From Dictyostelium discoideum (Eukaryota): 64,000 nt of DNA. A model generated the notes under the pieces. The model made no database searches. It saw only the letters and a program-made list of their open reading frames with translations, and was not told where the DNA came from. A program made the translations under genes and the position numbers. The DNA lies in NCBI GenBank assembly GCA_000004695.1, contig CM000152.2:1920001-1984000 (forward strand), written 5' to 3'. Each line of letters starts with the position of its first letter. Position 1 is the stretch's first letter. Positions 17,622 to 64,000 of the stretch are shown here, in pieces.

Positions 17622-20600
17622 AATTTAATCACAATTTAATTAATTTATTATTATTTTTTTAAAATAGATACATCTTTTGCTGGTAATATAATTGTTTCAA
17701 ATTTTAATAAATATCCAAGTGATTGTACAGTTTTACCATATGGACAATGCGTAGTTTTAATAGATTTAATAATGAATTCTACAAATTATTATTTATTATC
17801 AAATAATACTAATTTGGGAAATCCACAATTAGTTTCAGGTACTGAATTAAGTGGTAAATACTATTTATCGATTCCTCCAAGATTTGGATCATCAGGAGGT
17901 GTTTCAATTGGTTCTTTTGAAAATGGATTATATACAAGGTATATTTTAAACTTTCCAGTAGCTTATACTTATCCTCCAGCTCCAGCAATAGTTAATTCTG
18001 TTTTTACATTACAAACTCTAGATGGCAAAACAGTTCAATTTGGTGGTCAACTAAATAATTCTTTCCCATATTTTGGTGATTTATATTTTTCAAATAAAAA
18101 AGGTGGACCAAATAGACCAAATACAAAAGCACCATCTTGCTATCCTTATCTTGGTGGTACAAAAGATAAATTAATGTTTTCCTTAATCTTACCAATATCA
18201 AGTTATTCAAGATCAGTTTCACCCTATATGGCAATCTCTTATACGTTTATGAATTTAGTTGGTACAAATTTTAATTTGGTGACACAAATAACACCAACTT
18301 TAACTGGTGATACAACACCTCCAGTAATTGAAAATTTTGAAATCTTTGAAAATCCTTCAAATCCTGATGAAGTTATAATTAGAATGGATATTACCGATCA
18401 AGTTAGTGGTGTTCGTTATGTTGAAATTTCGTGTGGTTTTGGTTCATTACAAACCTATATTTACAGAGGTGATTCCACAGATTTAGTTGAAGGTACTATT
18501 TTTAGTGGTGTTTATCAATTTTCAATACCAAAATACTATACACGTGACCGTATTTCCATGTATATAGTTGATAATGCTATCAATGTTCTTTACCTTTCAA
18601 CTTATTCAGTATATAAGGGATTAAAAAGAGTTGAACCTTTCCCATATCCAGTAATAACACTTTTAGATATTGGTAATGTTTACTTTGAAAAGAATGATTT
18701 AGATCTATCAAATAATGGTGCTGATAATATTCTATATATTCAATTAAAGAATAATACTATAAAGAATCTATCATTCTCTTTGGTACCATTTTTTAATATT
18801 GAAGATAAAACACCAGATTTAACTATTGCAAATGAAGATTATTTCTATGGCAACCGTAAAAATTATCAAAGTAAATGGAATGAAACTTTACAATTGTATC
18901 AAATTGAATTCACAATTCCAGCTCGTTTACCAACTGGTGTGCTATCATATAATATAAATCCAGTTGAAAATTTAAATAGTGCGGTATTATACTCAATGTT
19001 TGGTACAAATAGTGAATTAAGAGTAAAAAGTAATGATTGTGATATAATGGGACCAATTGTTAGCTCTTTTCAAGTGACTCCAAGTTCAACAGTCACCATT
19101 CCAATTTCACCAACTCAATCTACAATGATTGGTTTTAACTTTTTAATTGAGGATCATTTAAATGGTATCAATAGTGTTTATATCACAATTGCTTCAAATC
19201 TTGATTTAGTTGGTTATGAATTTAAATTTGAAAATATTACAGGTACTCCATTACAATATTCTGTTGATGCAAAATTCCCAATTCATTCATATGATAAACC
19301 ACAAACATATACCATTTCAAATTTTAAAACAATTGATGGCCAAGGTTTCGTTGCAGAGTATCCAAATTTGGTAAAAGTTAATCCATTGTTTAAATTTATA
19401 AATAGTGGTCAAATATCAATTTCAACCATCAATGATGTGATTGGAAATTATATTCAAGATACCACACCACCACTTTTAACAAGTTGGAATGTTTCAAAAC
19501 AAACAGTACAAGATTTGGATAATATCTTGTTATTTGATTTCACAATTGAAGATTTAGAATCTGGTGTTTCAATTGTAAATAATCCATCAGTTATAATAGT
19601 TTGTGATAATAGTTTACTAATTGAAGGTAAATCAGAGATTATTTCAACAGTTCCAAATAGCAACAATCAATACATTAATAAATCCATAACTTATAGAGCT
19701 AAAATTACAGTACCATTTTTATTTGGTTATCCAAATGGTATCTCTTTAGGATTATACGGTATTTATGATAATCATCGTAATTTAAATGGTTTTGATGCAA
19801 AGAAATTAAATTCATTAGGTTTTCAATTTTTTGTAAATGCTCCATATGGTCAAAGTAATTCAATCATTACTTCATTATTCTATAATAGTGATGGTTTTAT
19901 TATTATTGAAGGTTTGAAATTTGGTATTAATCCAAAAGTTAAATTAATTAATACTCTATCAGGTGAAACTGTTATAAAAGCAATCCCAACTCCATACATT
20001 AATAAAACCATTATCTATTTAGATGCAATCGAATTTAGAAGTTCTTCACTTTCAAATGGTTTTAGAGTATATGTATCAAATAATGGTGTAGATTTTTCAA
20101 ATGATTTATTTGTTACCTTACCTGTAATTCCAACTGAATCACCAACACAAACTCAAACACCAACACAAACTCAAACACCAACACAAACTCAAACACAAAC
20201 ACCAACACAAACTCAAACACAAACACAAACACCAACACCAACACAAACTCAAACACCATTACCAACAAATACACCATCACCGTGCAAAGGTAATCCAATT
20301 TGTGGTGGTAATGATCAAGGTAAATGTACAAAATTAGGATGTGTTTGTATATTACCTTATTTTGGTGATGATTGTTCATCAAAGGTTATTATTGACATTA
20401 AGCCAACAGTTAATGAAACCCAACCACAAGTTACTATACCATATGAGCAAATTAATACAAAAGCAAAGGTATCAAGTTTAGTTTCAGTCTATTCTCTAAG
20501 AGAAATTGATTTTAATGGTAAAATAAAAAATGAATACCTTCTCGGGGAATGGGATTATGAAGTTCTCTCTGATAATGAATTTAAATATTCAACTGAAATC

Positions 20601-58480: not shown

Positions 58481-58513
<33 letters not shown>

Positions 58514-58759
58514 CAATATTACTATTTTATTTTAGTTAATATTTCCTTATATGGTTGTTTTTTTTATTTTATATTTTATTTTTTATTTATTTTTTATTTT
58601 TTTTTCAAAAATTCGGGTTGTGCCACATTAATTGTTTAATTATTTAAATTATAATAAATAAAATTGTTTATGTGGCATTTTTTTTTTATTATTTTTATTA
58701 TTAGTATAAAAAGAAATGGAATATTGTGAATTAGTAATCAAAAATTTAGTAAAATAAAA

Positions 58760-58932
58760 ATGAAATTAAAAATAAAATTTTCCATTATTTCACTTTTTAT
58801 TTTAAAATTGGTAATTTCAAAACCAATTTTAAAATTTAATAATAATAATCAATTTAAAATTATTCAATTTACAGATTTACACTATGGAAGTGAACCAGTT
58901 GATGATATTGATACTATTTTCTCTCAAGGTGA

Positions 58933-58965
<33 letters not shown>

Positions 58966-60136
58966 ATTTTTATTTTTAAAATAATTATATAAAATATTTT
59001 GATTTATTAATTTATTTTAAAGTAAATATATTGGATTATGAGAAACCAGATTTAGTAATTTTAAGTGGTGATATGGTTACAGGATATGAAGAACAATTTG
59101 AAGATGATGATAGAAATTATTGGAAGTATTGGAATGTATTCACAAGGCCATTTGTAGAAAGAAATATTCCATGGGCAATTACATTTGGTAATCATGATGG
59201 TGAAGGTGCACTTAGTACAAATGAAATTTTGAAAATTGACCAAACTTTTAATTTAAGTCTTTCTCAATCAAATCCGGTGGAAATGCATGGGATTGCAAAT
59301 TATGTATTAAAAATTTCAAGTTCGAATAGTTTAAAAAGTGAACCGGCTTCATTGGTATACATTTTCGATAGTTCCACCAAAGGTTGCTCAAAATTAGATT
59401 GGGGTTGTGTTCATCAAGATCAAGTGGATTGGTTTAAAAATACTTCAAAAAGTTTTAACAAAACTGATTCAATAGCATTTGTTCATATTCCTCCAGTTGA
59501 GATTATTGACTTATGGAATAATTATCCAGTTTATGGAAATTATTCAGAAACTTCTTGTTGCTTTGATAATGATTATGGTGACTTTGTCTCGAGCCTTGTT
59601 GAATCAGGAGATGTTCACGGTTTATATTTTGGTCATGATCATGAAAATGATTTCCATGGAGATTATAAAGGTGTTGATTTAGGATATGGCAGAAAATCAG
59701 GTGCTGGTTCATATAGTTCTAAAAAGCCATTAGGTGCAAGAGTATTCCAATTAACCGAATCACCTTTTACTCTTTCAACATGGATAAGAGAAGAAGATGG
59801 TAATATTGTATCCCAAGTAATTCATCCACCATCAGAATTCGATCGAAAACCACTTCAATGTAAAATGAAAGATAGTATGTATTAATTAATTAAAAAATCA
59901 TAATTATAAAAAATAAAAAAAATAAATTAACAATTGATTTTTCATTTATTTAAAATATTTAATTAGAGTATAGTAAAAAAGAATTAATAGCAATTAAAGT
60001 TATTGGAGGTTTTTTAATTTTCTTAGGAATAGTAGTTGTTGGTTTAATTGGATTTTTTGGGTTTAAACATTATAAAAAGTATGAATTTAAAAAACAATAC
60101 CAAGAATTTAAAAAATACTCAAATTGTATTTTATAA
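58760..60136 (+). CDS. Membrane-anchored calcineurin-like metallophosphoesterase (Dcr2 / purple-acid-phosphatase-like), paralog A. Exons 58760..58928, 59023..59874, 59967..60136.
   Basis: The signal peptide MKLKIKFSIISLFILKLVIS is followed by FKIIQFTDLHYG (DxH motif) | intron | VNILDYEKPDLVILSGDMVTG (GD), then AITFGNHDGE (GNHD/E), FVHIPP, GLYFGHDHENDF (GHDH). Donor A|GTATGT lies at 59875 and acceptor ttaattAG at 59965-66. The terminal exon KYSKKELIAIKVIGGFLIFLGIVVVGLIGFFGF is a TM anchor. All phases are consistent. Confidence 0.7.
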
Positions 60137-61122
60137 ATTCAATCATAAACACACCCTAATTAAACACACTTACATCACAACACACACACACACACATACA
60201 CATAACACACCCATTTATAATAACTGTAATATACAGAGAAATGAACGAATAATATAAATAAAAATGTATAATAAATTAAAATTGATTACATTTTATTTTT
60301 ATTATAATCCAATCTCGATATCTCTTTTTTTATAGATCACATCAAAAAATATTTAACTTCACCATTTTTAATTTATTTTGTTGTTTTGAATATCCCTTCT
60401 TTTTTTTATTTATTTATTTTTTTTGAAATTATGTCAAAGACTTTTCTTTTCAATCACTAACCTTTCAAATATTAATATTATTATTTAGATTCAAAAAGCA
60501 AACATTAGAAATGCAAAATCTTGTTTAATGAAAGTGAAGTTTATGGTTTTCCAAATTATATATAGATAATATCTAATCTTTTATATATATTTTTTATCTA
60601 AAATGCTAAATAAAATAGTGTGGTGCCATAGTTTGTTCTCAAAAAAAAATAAATAAAAAATAAACTTGATCAAGTTCTCTCAGAGATACTGGTTCTCATT
60701 GGTGGGTTATATTATCATTTTTTTTTATTTCTCAAATTTAATTGTTCAAATAATTTTATTTTATTTTTTTTTTTTTTTTTCATTTTAAAATAAATAAATA
60801 ATTAAAATAAATAATTAAATTATCTTTTTTATTTTTAAAAAATATTTTCAAAAAAAAAAAAAAAAAAAAGATTTATTTTTCAAAAACAATTTGGGAGGGA
60901 AAACAAAAAATAAAAGTCCCCAACAGAGCAAAAATAAAAAACCTATTTTTTTGAGTAAAAATTTGTCAAAAAATCCAATGCCAAAAAAAAAACATTGGAC
61001 CCATTTTTTCGAGTTCTCATTTTTCGATAACCTTTAGATTAATCCATCGCAACGTTGTAGTTTCAGAAAACATTTTAATATAAACCTTTCATAAATATAT
61101 TAAATGCACCTGTTTTGGAGAG

Positions 61123-61166
<44 letters not shown>

Positions 61167-61592
61167 AAACATTTTGCTACGTTTTATTTTATAATAATAT
61201 TTTCCGATTTGAATAGAAAAAAAAAAATTTAATGAAAAATTAAGTTTGAGTCTTTAACAAAAAATTTTAATGTTTTTCCTTTGAAAATTATATTAAATAA
61301 TATACAATTTTTTTTTTTTTTTTTAATGATTCGTGTCAAGTGCTACCTATGTTTTCTGTTTTTTTTTTTTTTTTTTTTAAATCCAAATATTTCCAAATTT
61401 GGAATTTAAATCAAAATTATTTCGTGTAGCATTATACAAAAAAAAAAAGGTTATAAATTATTATTTTTTTTTATAATTTATATATGTGGCTTTTTTTTAT
61501 TATTTTAAAAAAAAAATACTATAAAAAGGAAATGAAAAAAAAAAAATAATTCATTCAAACAATAAAAGAAACAATTTCGGAAAAAAAAAAAA

Positions 61593-62713
61593 ATGAAAGT
61601 AATAAATAAATTCATTATTATTTCAATATTATTAAAAATGGTAAACTCTAAACCAATTTTAAAATTTAATAATAATAATCAATTTAAAATTGTTCAATTT
61701 ACTGATTTACATTATGGTAGTGATCCAGAGTCAGATGTAGATTCAGTTTATTCTCAAAGTAATTATTAATAATTTAAAATAAATAAAACCAAAAAATAAA
61801 AATAAAAATAAAAATAAAAAATAAAGAGATTACTAATTTAATAAAAATTTAAAAAAGTTACAATCTTAGATTATGAGAAACCAGATTTAGTAGTTTTTAG
61901 TGGTGATATGATTTCAGGTTACCTTGATCCATTTGAAGATAATGATAAAAATTATTGGAAGTATTGGAATTTATTCACTGAACCTTTAATTGAAAGAAAT
62001 ATTCCATGGGCTATTACATTTGGTAATCATGATGGTGAAGGTGCACTCAGTACAAATGAAATTTTGAAACTTGACCAAACTTTTAATTTAAGTCTTTCCC
62101 AATCAAATTCAGTGGAAATGCATGGGATTGCAAATTATGTATTAAAAATTTCAAGTTCAAATAGTTCAAAAGAGGAACCTGCATCTTTAATTTATATTTT
62201 TGACAGTTCCACCAAAGGTTGTTCAAAATTAGATTGGGGTTGTGTTCATCAAGATCAAGTGGATTGGTTTAAAAATACTTCAAAAAGTTTTAACAAAACT
62301 AATTCAATTGCATTTGTTCATATTCCTCCAATTGAAGTTATTGACTTATGGAACAAATATCCAGTTCATGGTAATTTTTCAGAAACTCCATGTTGTTTTG
62401 ATAATGAATTTGGTAACTTTGTCCCAAGCCTTGTTGAATCAGGAGATGTTCACGGTTTATATTTTGGTCATGATCATGAAAATGATTTCCATGGAGATTA
62501 TAAAGGTGTTGATTTAGGATATGGCAGAAAATCAGGTGAAGGTTCATATAGTTCCAAAAAGCCATTAGGTGCAAGAGTATTCCAATTAACCGAATCACCT
62601 TTTACTCTTTCAACATGGATAAGAGAAGTAAATGGTAATATTGTATCTCAAGATGTTCATGTACAATCTGAAATAGATCAAAAACCACTTCAATGTAAAA
62701 GAAAGATAGTAAG

Positions 62714-62771
<58 letters not shown>

Positions 62772-62980
62772 AATTAATATTTATTAATTTTTATTTTTTT
62801 ATAAAATTAGAATATAGTAAAAGACAATTGTTAATTTATAAAATTGTTGGAAGTTTTTCAATTTTTTTGGCAGTAGTACTCGTTGGTTTGGCTGGATTTT
62901 TTGGATATAAATTTTATAAAAAGTATGAATTTAAAAAACATTACCAAGAATTAAAAAAATTCTCAAATTGTATTTTATAA
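61593..62980 (+). CDS. Membrane-anchored calcineurin-like metallophosphoesterase, paralog B (about 85% identical to paralog A). Exons 61593..61758, 61858..62712, 62811..62980.
   Basis: It has the same three-exon architecture as paralog A. Exon 1 is MKVINKFIIISILLKMVNSKPILKFNNNNQFKIVQFTDLHYGSDPESDVDSVYSQ. Exon 2 carries the GDMISG, GNHDGE and GHDHENDF motifs. The GTATTT donor at 62713 was chosen (phase 1) because it reproduces the TM exon YSKRQLLIYKIVGSFSIFLAVVLVGLAGFFGY. The stronger GTAAGT at 62709 would truncate after 7 codons. Confidence 0.65.
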
Positions 62981-63259
62981 AATACAACCATAAACATACC
63001 CTAAACACTCACATCACACAAACAAACACAAACACTCACACAAACACAACATACACGATAATAACACACCCATTTATAATAACTGTAATATAGAGATGAA
63101 TGCTTGATATTTAATAATAAAATGTATAATATAAATTAAAATTTAATACATTTTATTTTATTATCATCCTATTTCTATATTTCTATTTTATAGATCACTT
63201 TCAACAAAAATCACATTTTACCAACATTCAAAAAGATGATGGTATTTTAAATTATTTTC

Positions 63260-63296
<37 letters not shown>

Positions 63297-63572
63297 TTTT
63301 TTTTCATAACAATTTTTTATAATAATAATAATATTCAAAAATATAATATTTAAATATTAACATTTTAATTTTATAATTTTATAGGAGACAAGTTCAAAAA
63401 TAAACAAAGTAACCATCAAACAAGATTTTCCAAAGTTAATTATGTAAATCACCCCACATAATGTAAACAAAACACCCATTCATTGTATTATAGTAAAATA
63501 AAAATAAAATAAATAAAAATAATTTAAAATAAGTTAAATAGATTAAAGATCTATTAAAGTTGTTTTTTTTTT

Positions 63573-64000
63573 TTATTTATAAATTGAAACATTGATAATA
63601 TCATTTTGATCATTTTCACAATTATTATCAATTATTACATAACCACGATACATACCTTCAGTGTTGAAAGGCATTTCAACATTTCCATATTTATCAACAC
63701 AAATTACACCACCATCACCAACTGTTATTAATTTTTCCATTACAACTTTATTGGATGCATCTTTTAAAGATAAAGAACCATATTCCATCATTGCAGCAAT
63801 ATCAAAAGCGGCCACTGTTCTCATAAATGCTTCACCAGTTCCAGTTGAACTAACAGCAACATTTTTATTTGCATAAACACCAGCACCAATAATTGGAGTA
63901 TCACCAACTCTACCATGCATTTTATTTGTCATACCACCAGTTGAAGTTGCAGCGGCTAAATTACCAAAGGAATCTAAACAAACAGCACCAACAGTTCCCA
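63573..64000 (-). CDS. Isoaspartyl peptidase / L-asparaginase (ASRGL1-type Ntn hydrolase), C-terminal part. The gene's 5' end lies beyond the window.
   Basis: GTVGAVCLDSFGNLAAATSTGGMTNKMHGRVGDTPIIGAGVYANKNVAVSSTGTGEAFMR matches ASRGL1 [60 protein letters not shown]. The open frame continues to the window edge. Confidence 0.8.
   Translation of the reverse strand, partial: GTVGAVCLDSFGNLAAATSTGGMTNKMHGRVGDTPIIGAGVYANKNVAVSSTGTGEAFMRTVAAFDIAAMMEYGSLSLKDASNKVVMEKLITVGDGGVICVDKYGNVEMPFNTEGMYRGYVIIDNNCENDQNDIINVSIYK

Follow-up and report, generated by a model that had tools for sequence, protein, structure and literature searches.

Results

Two metallophosphoesterase genes in tandem

The stretch of DNA analysed here (the window, 64 kb in length) belongs to chromosome 3 of Dictyostelium discoideum and carries two neighbouring genes, DDB_G0279353 (copy A) and DDB_G0279355 (copy B); all features given below lie on the + strand. 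The pair is already known as annotated D. discoideum loci, and no mention of either locus was found in the literature searched. Copy A consists of exon 1 (58760..58928, signal peptide and DxH motif), exon 2 (59023..59874, catalytic domain with GD, GNHD, H211 and GHDH) and exon 3 (59967..60136, TM helix at about aa 345-376 and cytoplasmic tail YEFKKQYQEFKKYSNCIL). An annotated alternative acceptor of exon 2, at 59050, is used by the AX4 isoform P0125. The corresponding exons of copy B are located at 61593..61758 (signal peptide, DxH), 61858..62708 when read to the ancestral donor (the annotated model runs to 62712) and 62811..62980 (TM helix and tail, intact). The first-pass annotation had proposed this three-exon architecture for both genes, and it is confirmed, all introns being GT..AG and both products 396 aa long. 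ATG-to-ATG, the period of the tandem copies is 2833 nt. Their coding sequences are 87.2% identical at the nucleotide level and the proteins share 319/395 residues, that is 81% and not about 85% as estimated before. In the search for further paralogs, suggested at the same time, tblastn found no third copy within the 64-kb window; a 53%-identical paralogue was included in the comparisons below.

The spliced product of copy A exactly matches KAM9949284.1, which sits in the DDB_G0279353 cluster; AX4 gene models for this copy are XP_002649162/3. From Met16 onward, copy B equals the DDB_G0279355 model (XP_641812 / Q54WW5). Orthologue models of copy B begin MKVINKFIIIS..., AX4 model P0127 begins MVNSKP, and the true start of copy B is probably 61593 and not Met16 of the AX4 model (61638). 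The deposited copy B model has this internal-Met start and takes a weak intron-2 donor (see below) without comment; strain-specific deletion, gene conversion and conserved flanks are all unrecorded in the deposited models of both genes. Exon 3 of copy B differs from that of strain W copy B by a single S/T replacement, and its intact state fits a full-length frame that is still in use.

The encoded enzyme

Exon 3 of both copies encodes a TM helix followed by a basic tail. With a signal-like N-terminus, a TM hydropathy peak (2.79 in copy A) and 4-5 N-glycosylation sequons, both products are predicted to be type I membrane proteins; their domain resembles purple acid phosphatases. Both match Pfam PF00149 (Metallophos), with scores of 47.8 and 46.2 bits (cut-off 21.5; E = 3e-12 for copy A). 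In both copies D39/H41, G72-D73, G112-N113-H114-D115, H211 and G260-H261-D262-H263 belong to the invariant or nearly invariant positions of a 17-member alignment; the metal-ligand motif set is complete, as in a calcineurin-like metallophosphoesterase. The AF2 model (pLDDT 89, pTM 0.82) has the alpha/beta sandwich fold of PF00149 members and a long C-terminal helix (residues 344-395), and its top PDB matches are all metallophosphoesterases.

Among PDB entries, mammalian purple acid phosphatases come closest (E about 1e-11, target-normalised TM 0.63-0.67), and they were also matched in the profile search. Mammalian ACP5/TRAP (PDB 1war, 1ute, 1qhw) and copies A and B have in common the binuclear-metal fold and the DxH/GD/GNH(D)/H/GHxH set, and both are secretory-pathway enzymes, copies A and B by prediction. 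However, identity to purple acid phosphatases is only 15-19%, and copies A and B carry in addition a C-terminal TM anchor and cytoplasmic tail. The GDxxY motif of strict purple acid phosphatases, associated with the Fe(III)-tyrosinate, was not found in the two copies: their second motif reads GDMVTGY or GDMISGY, the Tyr being therefore displaced by two residues. We take the nearest named subgroup to be yeast Dcr2 / plant PAP28-29-like.

Age of the duplication and gene conversion

Next, we compared the locus among related genomes. Loci L001-L008 share the same synteny, with an upstream gene of 650-760 aa, one, two or three phosphoesterase copies and a convergent asparaginase gene. Two copies are present in D. 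citrinum and in D. cf. discoideum, three in D. dimigraforme and one in D. firmibasis. Trees built from the gene ends unite the B copies with 100% support and the A copies of discoideum, cf. discoideum and citrinum with 92%, and judged by these trees the duplication is old. The single D. firmibasis copy groups weakly (46%) with the A side; given this weak grouping, copy loss in D. firmibasis is possible.

The centre of the gene sorts by species instead (D. citrinum A and B 100%, D. dimigraforme 2 and 3 99%). Within one genome, copies A and B are 94-99% identical in the centre, against 83-88% between orthologues, so that the segments are incongruent and paralogues stand closer within a genome than between genomes. 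The longest identical run measures 112 nt (95th percentile of the null, 55), and 24 of the 35 substitutions private to window copy A match window copy B. Paralogue dS amounts to 0.50 at the gene ends and 0.11-0.23 in the centre. Since the ends group by orthology and the centre by species, we conclude from these sequences that interlocus gene conversion has repeatedly made the copies of the central catalytic exon alike. Dating the pair by a simple Ks, as had been proposed, would therefore mislead. Orthologue dN/dS is 0.12-0.15 for either copy; both are under purifying selection.

A one-base deletion next to the copy B donor

Seven other genomes supplied 13 further copies of A or B, and in every one of them intron 2 begins at the homologous position with a phase-1 donor (GTAAGT, GTATGT or GTAGGT); the donor of window copy A is GTATGT at 59875. 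Copy B has two overlapping donors at 62709..62718, namely GTAAGT (62709, ancestral, now in phase 0) and GTATTT (62713, phase 1). The former leads to a frameshift and a 346-aa product without TM anchor. The latter, 4 nt downstream, is in frame, gives 396 aa and is the only one to restore the frame; reading the sequence near 62811, we found no in-frame AG acceptor able to rescue GTAAGT. The first-pass description of the donors of both copies is exact.

The difference traces to a run of four A at 62697..62700, which is A5 in every other B copy, the lost base lying 9-13 nt upstream of the ancestral GTAAGT. Other B copies (7/7) read TGTAAAAAGAAAGATA immediately before GT, while the window and assembly L008 read TGTAAAAGAAAGATA there. 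L008 (GCA_054883475.1) is an independent assembly of the same or a near-identical strain; over 5.3 kb it differs from the window in three homopolymer lengths and one SNP and in nothing else. On this comparison, A4 is a 1-nt deletion private to this strain lineage and a recent strain-level polymorphism. The donor oddity is therefore not early subfunctionalisation of the pair, an idea which the phase-1 donor in 13/13 other copies likewise contradicts. The accompanying suggestion, a truncated copy B product lacking the anchor, is a real possibility because the strong GTAAGT donor is out of frame.

Promoters

Similarity of the promoter-proximal blocks, also noticed before, is real and conserved in orthologues. 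Upstream of copy A there are a perfect CArG box CCTTATATGG (58545..58554, 215 nt upstream of ATG), an inverted repeat GTGCCACAT - N41 - ATGTGGC (58620..58676) and a TATA box GTATAAAA(AG) (58704..58711). Copy B is preceded by the motif GTGCTACCT (61340..61348), present in 6/7 B promoters and represented by ATGCAACCT in some A copies as well as in D. firmibasis, then by a CArG box CCAAATTTGG (61393..61402, 200 nt upstream of ATG), a degenerate left arm GTGTAGCAT with an intact right arm ATGTGGC (61424..61490) and a TATA box CTATAAAA(AG) (61519..61526).

CC(A/T)6GG was found in 15/15 promoters examined, between -231 and -127; the A/T core takes five forms and CC and GG never vary. A CArG box is found also upstream of the 53%-identical paralogue. 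The element is a CArG box conserved in position, as in a candidate SRF/MADS-box target promoter. Promoters known to depend on SrfA or SrfB are reported to have yielded no consensus site (PMC3819988). The A lineage and D. firmibasis preserve the start-to-start spacing of 50 nt in the inverted repeat, and in D. firmibasis the arms are a matched pair, GTGCCACAC / GTGTGGC. ATGTGGC was found 4 times in the window, where 1.7 would be expected. All 15 promoters keep an inverted repeat, the left arm of copy B being degenerate. Most of the 15 aligned promoters have the TATA box, D. dimigraforme copy 2 and D. cf. discoideum Y copy A being unmatched.

A conserved block behind the stop codon

Most copies are followed by a CA-rich tract of variable length (60150..60209 in copy A), which copies 1 and 2 of D. 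dimigraforme lack. A block of 130 nt comes next. In copy A (60210..60340) it contains UGUAAUAUA at 60225, AAUAAA at 60257-60262, UGUAUAAUA at 60265, an invariant CA at 60289-60290 and a U-rich tail, and ends with TTTATAGATCAC; in copy B (63069..63198) AAUAAA is at 63116-63121 and CA at 63149-63150. The two blocks are 85% identical (shuffle null 0.64 +/- 0.02), and the reported 3' flank similarity is genuine. CCCATTTATAATAACTGTAATAT occurs exactly twice in the 64 kb (60210 and 63069), with 0 expected in 100 shuffles. Mean column identity over 16 copies is 88%. Between species, pairwise identity of the block is 0.79-0.87; third codon positions reach 0.63-0.77, and the null is 0.64. With an identity of 79-87% across species in 16 copies, and with the conserved promoter elements, the flank similarity is not of low complexity, the reservation made before, and is probably functional.

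A profile search with the block gave matches only behind phosphoesterase genes. It is always sense-oriented, 19 to 104 nt after the stop codon (the shortest distances, 19-21 nt, being those of D. dimigraforme), and its presence behind the single D. firmibasis copy indicates conservation from before the duplication, at near-coding stringency. No conserved fold was found in it on either strand, and no Rfam match. As a poly(A) sequence we required AAUAAA 10-30 nt before CA, with a U-rich stretch downstream and UGUA upstream; the block has this canonical arrangement, the distance from AAUAAA to CA being 28 nt in copy A and 29 nt in copy B. Alignment columns C80 and A81 do not vary, nor does the U-run behind them. 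Apart from the block, the 12-mer AAATGTATAATA is present 12 nt past the stop codon of the 53%-identical paralogue and at no other place in the loci.

Density of UGUANNAUA in the block is far above the window background. This motif is the recognition element of yeast Puf4p/Puf5p (PMC4357503). The invariant 9-mers UGUAAUAUA and UGUAUAAUA fit it on the sense strand, 40 nt apart, and are candidate PUF sites; Dictyostelium has a PUF protein, PufA. The motif is AT-rich and, across the window, overall at chance level (22 occurrences).

An optional terminal exon

The 3' block lies inside an alternative terminal intron. In copy A this intron spans 60079..60488 (donor AAAAA/GTATGA, branch point ACTAAC at 60456, acceptor TTTAG) and leads to a last exon at 60489..60528 with the tail KFKKQTLEMQNLV and a stop; the junction reproduces the AX4 isoform XP_002649163 (P0126, ...HYKKFKKQTLEMQNLV). 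Copy B has the same internal donor, with an intron at 62923..63384 (branch point ATTAAC at 63356, acceptor TTTTATAG) and a predicted last exon at 63385..63403 with the tail KRQVQK and a stop; no annotated isoform using it was found. A conserved island comprising branch point, acceptor and the initial ~20 nt of this exon is shared by D. firmibasis and the B copies of four species. The first-pass annotation contained neither this optional fourth exon nor the CArG box, nor how deeply the 3' block is conserved across species.

Discussion

The tandem duplication of a membrane-anchored metallophosphoesterase gene, with homology extending into both flanks, is well supported. We consider it highly probable that the present locus reflects an old tandem duplication, gene conversion and a lineage-private A4 deletion, with the donor use and 3' module outlined here. 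In the ancestral product, a signal peptide would have been followed by a binuclear metallophosphoesterase domain, purple-acid-phosphatase-like and lumenal or extracellular, and this by a single TM helix and a short basic tail. Tandem duplication, at a period of ~2.8 kb, would then have doubled the gene along with promoter, 3' module and optional fourth exon. This event would predate the separation of D. discoideum, D. citrinum and D. dimigraforme and probably postdate the D. firmibasis split. Conversion would then have acted independently in each lineage and would still be ongoing between strains. Primate globin and other tandem gene pairs are the textbook cases of interlocus gene conversion, and the mosaic is the same, with orthologous ends and a centre homogenised per genome. 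Compared with them nothing is unusual; here the conversion tracts end before exon 1, exon 3 and introns.

In this strain, the one-base deletion from A5 to A4 throws the U1-perfect ancestral GTAAGT out of frame, and the spliceosome may still mostly choose it. If so, the copy B enzyme would be mainly a soluble, anchor-less protein of 346 aa, accompanied by a minority of full-length copy B made from the GTATTT donor 4 nt downstream. Full rescue of copy B, with GTATTT (62713) used, both paralogues membrane-anchored and the deletion merely changing KKKD to KRKIV, seems to us possible but rather doubtful. The annotated model P0127 adopts the GTATTT junction, exon 3 of copy B is intact, and intron 1 of these same genes is spliced from comparably weak donors (GTAATT, GTGATT), so that weakness by itself is no reason to dismiss GTATTT. 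Yet P0127 is a frame-preserving prediction whose start at Met16 is also doubtful, and none of the 30 family donors is GTATTT (0/30). GTAAGT, overlapping 4 nt upstream, pairs with the 5' end of U1 at 6/6 intron positions, whereas GTATTT is without +4 A and +5 G. A sequencing or assembly error in the A4 run, hiding a real gene with a normal in-frame GTAAGT donor, is very improbable. The site is a short homopolymer and homopolymer lengths do differ elsewhere between the window and L008, but the runs concerned are 29 nt or longer, whereas this one has 4-5 nt, and the independent assembly GCA_054883475.1 has the identical A4 allele. It is even less credible that the pair is young and owes its high central identity to youth and strong constraint, without gene conversion. 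CDS identity is indeed 87% overall and identical runs are long. Nevertheless, in trees of the gene ends the A and the B copies of three species form orthology clades (bootstrap 92-100%), in contrast to the species-wise grouping of the centre, synonymous divergence is likewise lower in the centre (0.11-0.23 against 0.50), and strain-private changes of copy A have taken up the copy B state; recent duplication without conversion is refuted by segment trees, centre dS, identity runs and private substitutions together.

The 130-nt block we infer to be a sense-strand poly(A)/3'UTR module composed of two UGUANNAUA sites, AAUAAA, CA 28-29 nt on and a U-rich tail. For a poly(A) signal, 130 nt of near-invariant sequence is more than would normally be required, and the last 40 nt of the block (…AATTTCTATATTTCTTTTTTTATAGATCAC) are not accounted for by the poly(A)-module reading. 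It is unlikely, in our opinion, that the block acts as DNA and not as sense mRNA, be it as an antisense or small-ncRNA promoter or as a downstream enhancer joining the CA-rich tract. Primary-sequence conservation without a fold is what protein-binding DNA would be expected to show. The block begins with ACACCCATTTATAA, adjoining a CA tract which is G-box/CAE-like, CTATAAAAAAAGAAAT might serve as a minus-strand TATA box resembling the genes' own TATA region, and a DUSE-like ACCCAT with AAATGTA about 53 nt on resembles the arrangement of DUSE and TGTG box. The DUSE consensus is [AT]CCCA[AT]AA (PMC3188802), and in DUSE-driven ncRNA genes it stands ~60 nt upstream of the RNA or TGTG box (PMC3188802, PMC7919456). 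However, the block has ACCCATTT, agreeing at 6/8 positions and invariant in all copies, and AAATGTA where a TGTG box would have AAATGTG. Class I RNA hallmarks (GTTGA stem, CCTTACAGCAA) are absent from it, and Rfam gave no match. Moreover, its orientation is constant, close behind the stop codon, it is transcribed in sense at least within the annotated alternative intron, and the 12-mer AAATGTATAATA recurs in the sense 3'UTR of the paralogue.

If the block is a poly(A)/3'UTR module, cleavage at it would keep the conserved tail ...YEFKKxYQELKKFSNCIL, and splicing over it would swap in a short basic tail. In the immunoglobulin mu gene, an internal 5' splice site competes with an upstream poly(A) site in a composite terminal exon. 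Copies A and B likewise have a donor inside the last coding exon that would compete with a poly(A)-like module in an optional intron, and a downstream alternative terminal exon. Unlike in immunoglobulin mu, the TM helix is kept in both isoforms and only the cytoplasmic tail changes, the use and regulation of the two ends being putative. As a tentative reading, less likely than not, we propose that the 130-nt block is an undescribed cis-module choosing between intronic polyadenylation and terminal splicing, and so the cytoplasmic tail, that its PUF sites and the CArG box tie the pair to development, and that copy B of this strain is a natural anchor-less allele. If this is true, the block would presumably set the membrane destination of the enzyme through the choice of its tail.

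Structure of the gene pair and its products

Both genes lie on the plus strand of the window, which has a G+C content of about 22%. Copy A consists of exons 58760-58928, 59023-59874 and 59967-60136, and copy B of exons 61593-61758, 61858-62712 and 62811-62980, each encoding 396 aa; the first-pass annotation had placed the coordinates and exon structures of both copies correctly. Its figure of about 85% protein identity was close, the measured value being lower (319/395, or 81%), and the coding sequences are 87% identical. Only these two copies of the gene were found in the window by tblastn. Raw blastn self-comparison was swamped by AT-rich low-complexity matches, and global alignment, sliding identity and shuffle nulls were used instead. 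Global alignment and sliding identity show A and B to be similar, well over the AT-rich background, across a stretch that begins some 100 nt upstream of the ATG and ends some 200 nt beyond the stop codon. The 23-mer opening the conserved block downstream of each copy has exactly two occurrences in the 64 kb, where the expected number is zero.

The spliced copy A product is identical to a D. discoideum protein in the databases, and its 90% cluster includes DDB_G0279353 of strain AX4. From Met16 onwards, copy B corresponds to DDB_G0279355 (XP_641812, Q54WW5). Both are therefore annotated, uncharacterised chromosome 3 genes, and a search of a paper library by locus names and UniProt accessions found no mention of either. 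Within 61593-61640, the AX4 model of DDB_G0279355 (381 aa) takes Met16 (61638) as its start and hence has no signal peptide. Translation from the ATG at 61593 yields MKVINKFIIISILLK..., in agreement with every orthologue model, and the start of DDB_G0279355 is probably mis-annotated. For copy A, an in-frame alternative acceptor is annotated 27 nt inside exon 2 (59023-59050); its use yields isoform XP_002649162 without VNILDYEKP. Downstream of the pair, a convergent gene of the asparaginase family (Asparaginase_2 by Pfam at the orthologous loci) has its 3´ part at 63575-64000 on the minus strand; only about 590 nt separate its stop codon from that of copy B.

Both proteins match Pfam Metallophos and have every metal-ligand motif intact; the motif residues are invariant or nearly so in a 17-member family alignment. 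The AlphaFold model is confident (pLDDT 89, pTM 0.82). Used in a fold search, it finds mammalian purple acid phosphatases as the best solved structural neighbours, with Rv0805, GpdQ and the SMPDL3 enzymes next. With phmmer, PDB yielded no matches; a sequence profile search of PDB also reached purple acid phosphatases. The strict GDxxY motif of these enzymes is missing from copies A and B. From the hydrophobic N-terminus, four to five N-glycosylation sequons, strong C-terminal transmembrane peak and lysine-rich tail, we infer a type I membrane protein with its catalytic domain lumenal or outside the cell.

Orthologous loci and gene conversion

The orthologous region was taken from eight other assemblies. 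They share the order of an upstream gene of 650-760 aa, the phosphoesterase gene or genes, the convergent asparaginase gene and a clathrin adaptor sigma subunit gene. Two phosphoesterase copies are present in three further D. discoideum assemblies, in two of D. cf. discoideum and in D. citrinum, three copies in tandem in D. dimigraforme (L006, 1-7826) and one in D. firmibasis (L007, 8001-9355). In-frame three-exon models with canonical splice sites could be built for all 15 complete copies, one of them with a GC donor in intron 1. This donor (GCAATT, L003 3365-3370) belongs to copy A of D. cf. discoideum strain Y, the site being GT in all other copies. The CA tract is absent after both copies 1 and 2 of D. 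dimigraforme, and because of this shared absence these two copies probably stem from a younger duplication. An orthologue dN/dS of 0.12-0.15 shows that copies A and B are both functional genes.

Neighbour-joining trees are incongruent between gene segments. In the tree of the gene ends, B copies form one clade (100%) and the A copies of D. discoideum, D. cf. discoideum and D. citrinum another (92%). The central 600 nt group by species instead, uniting D. citrinum A with B (100%) and D. dimigraforme 2 with 3 (99%). Central identity between A and B inside one genome reaches 94-99%, against 83-88% between orthologues, and dS between paralogues falls from 0.50 at the ends to 0.11-0.23 in the centre. 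In the window, A and B are identical over at most 112 consecutive nt, compared with a permutation 95th percentile of 55, and 24 of the 35 private substitutions of the window's copy A match the state of its own copy B. Taken together, segment trees, identities, dS and private substitutions indicate that the duplication predates these species and that recurrent, still active gene conversion keeps the catalytic exon alike. Because of this conversion, divergence-based dating of the pair is unreliable. Strains labelled D. discoideum (the window versus L001 and L002) differ by 2-4% in copies A and B, with dS of 0.08-0.15; much of this difference is attributable to different conversion tracts, not to point mutation.

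Intron 2 donor of copy B

The first-pass annotation had noted in copy B a strong GTAAGT that would truncate the protein and a weaker GTATTT 4 nt downstream, and this description is exact. Splicing at GTAAGT (62709) gives a 346-aa frameshifted product ending in QCKRKINIVKDNC, GTATTT at 62713 restores the frame, and reading the sequence near the acceptor revealed no AG able to rescue that frame. All seven other B copies have CAATGTAAAAAGAAAGATA followed by GTAAGT or GTATGT. The window's copy B has CAATGTAAAAGAAAGATA before GTAAGT, one A fewer, its run at 62697-62700 being A4. The donor is accordingly in phase 0 here, against the ancestral phase 1 in 13/13 other A and B copies. A4 is also found in L008, an independent chromosome-scale assembly of the same or a near-identical strain, which over 5.3 kb differs from the window only by three homopolymer lengths and one SNP (61789). 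Since this independent assembly shares the allele, the one-nucleotide deletion is genuine and confined to this strain lineage. The long homopolymers concerned are A49 at 62720-62768 in intron 2 of copy B, A42 at 61123-61164 and T29 at 58483-58511, which in L008 are 5-13 nt longer or shorter than in the window.

The deposited AX4 model shifts the donor by 4 nt, which saves the frame and turns KKKD into KRKIV. In terms of U1 pairing, GTAAGT is a perfect intron match, whereas GTATTT has neither an A at +4 nor a G at +5; among the 30 donors of the phosphoesterase family, not one is GTATTT. We consider it fairly probable that GTAAGT is the donor mostly used in copy B. Its use would produce a soluble copy B enzyme without the anchor, with the stop codon in the last exon. 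Exact look-up of truncated and intron-retaining copy B products in the protein collection gave no match, which is uninformative. As the strong donor is out of frame, the truncated copy B form proposed in the first-pass annotation is plausible. Its companion suggestion, early subfunctionalisation of the paralogues, is the wrong frame for what is a recent polymorphism.

Promoter-proximal elements

We aligned 260 nt upstream of 15 copies from five species. A perfect CArG box, CC(A/T)6GG, lies at -127 to -231 in all 15 (58545-58554 for copy A and 61393-61402 for copy B, both on the plus strand); five different A/T cores occur, with CC and GG invariant. It is also found upstream of the 53%-identical paralogue (L011 2629-2638). 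Two further matches to CC(A/T)6GG are located in the window at 157-166 and 19362-19371. The motif is not enriched across the whole window (4 matches versus 5.8 expected); the case for it rests on position and conservation. SrfA- or SrfB-dependent promoters were reported to contain no consensus SRF site (PMC3819988), which makes the conserved CArG site a useful lead.

The same upstream regions contain an inverted repeat, GTGCCACAT-N41-ATGTGGC, whose 50-nt spacing is fixed in the A lineage. Both of its arms are altered in step in D. firmibasis (GTGCCACAC / GTGTGGC), and in B copies the left arm has degenerated. Next, in most copies, comes a TATAAAAAG box.

Conserved 3´ block and alternative terminal intron

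A block of 124-131 nt (60210-60340 behind copy A, 63069-63198 behind copy B) follows all 16 copies, 19-104 nt after the stop codon and after a CA-rich tract of variable length. Column identity over the 16 copies averages 88%. The blocks of D. discoideum and D. firmibasis, species separated by dS of 0.9-1.0, are 79-84% identical; third codon positions in the same comparisons are 63-65% identical, and introns and neighbouring flank are no more alike than the shuffle null (0.64). The block was absent when sought behind the distant homologues of D. purpureum (L009, L010) and behind L011. A 12-mer of it, AAATGTATAATA, does recur at L011 4447-4458, 12 nt past the stop codon of that paralogue, and nowhere else in the loci. 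Between the predicted copy B alternative exon and the asparaginase gene, there is another conserved non-coding island, CCCATTCATTGTATTATAGTAAAATA (63466-63492), kept in D. discoideum, D. cf. discoideum and D. citrinum and partly in D. firmibasis; it holds a further UGUANNAUA.

Several identities of the block were considered. A coding reading is rejected because indels are not multiples of 3. Structured RNA fares no better: RNAalifold gave -3.0 and -1.5 kcal/mol for the two strands with virtually no covariation, no relevant Rfam match appeared at permissive thresholds on the region or gathering thresholds on the whole window, and ARAGORN found no tRNA. Against a dispersed repeat or mobile element, exact, fuzzy and profile searches located the block only behind phosphoesterase copies, the profile search detecting no other copy in about 190 kb. 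The sense strand carries two 9-mers of the form UGUANNAUA, which yeast Puf4p/Puf5p are reported to bind (PMC4357503), as well as AAUAAA with an invariant CA 28-29 nt later, and a U-rich tail. Our preferred reading, to which we give roughly even chances, is that the block is a poly(A)/3´UTR module. Action at the DNA level, as an antisense or DUSE-like ncRNA promoter or as an enhancer located downstream that acts together with the CAE/G-box-like CA tract, seems less likely. The TGTG box (AAATGTG; PMC7919456) and the DUSE ([AT]CCCA[AT]AA; PMC3188802) are only approximated in the block, the exact DUSE consensus being absent.

The poly(A)/3´UTR reading can be set beside an annotated splice. In the AX4 isoform XP_002649163 of copy A, an internal exon 3 donor after 60078 is joined to 60489, swapping the tail YEFKKQYQEFKKYSNCIL for FKKQTLEMQNLV. 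This splice spans the block, which therefore sits within an optional terminal intron. All B copies and D. firmibasis keep the internal donor, the acceptor with its branch point (ACTAAC or ATTAAC) and roughly the first 20 nt of the exon; the branch point fits wCTAAy, the consensus reported for D. discoideum (PMC2483917). Use of the block as a poly(A) module would keep the conserved tail, and splicing over it would swap the tail. The arrangement would work like the composite-terminal-exon switch of immunoglobulin mu.

Implications

As a gene pair, these loci are routine, an ordinary annotated tandem duplicate under concerted evolution. What is worth keeping is the copy B donor frameshift, the start of DDB_G0279355, the CArG promoter and the 3´ block with its alternative terminal exon. 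Divergence dates of similar Dictyostelium tandem pairs are likewise unreliable. The reference splice junction of DDB_G0279355 rests on an assumption, and those who work with the laboratory strain may be dealing with a copy B that has no anchor. The CArG box is among the few phylogenetically supported consensus SRF-type candidate sites in Dictyostelium. Finally, the block and the alternative terminal exon make a small, testable example of 3´-end regulation in an organism where hardly any other non-coding DNA can be aligned between species.
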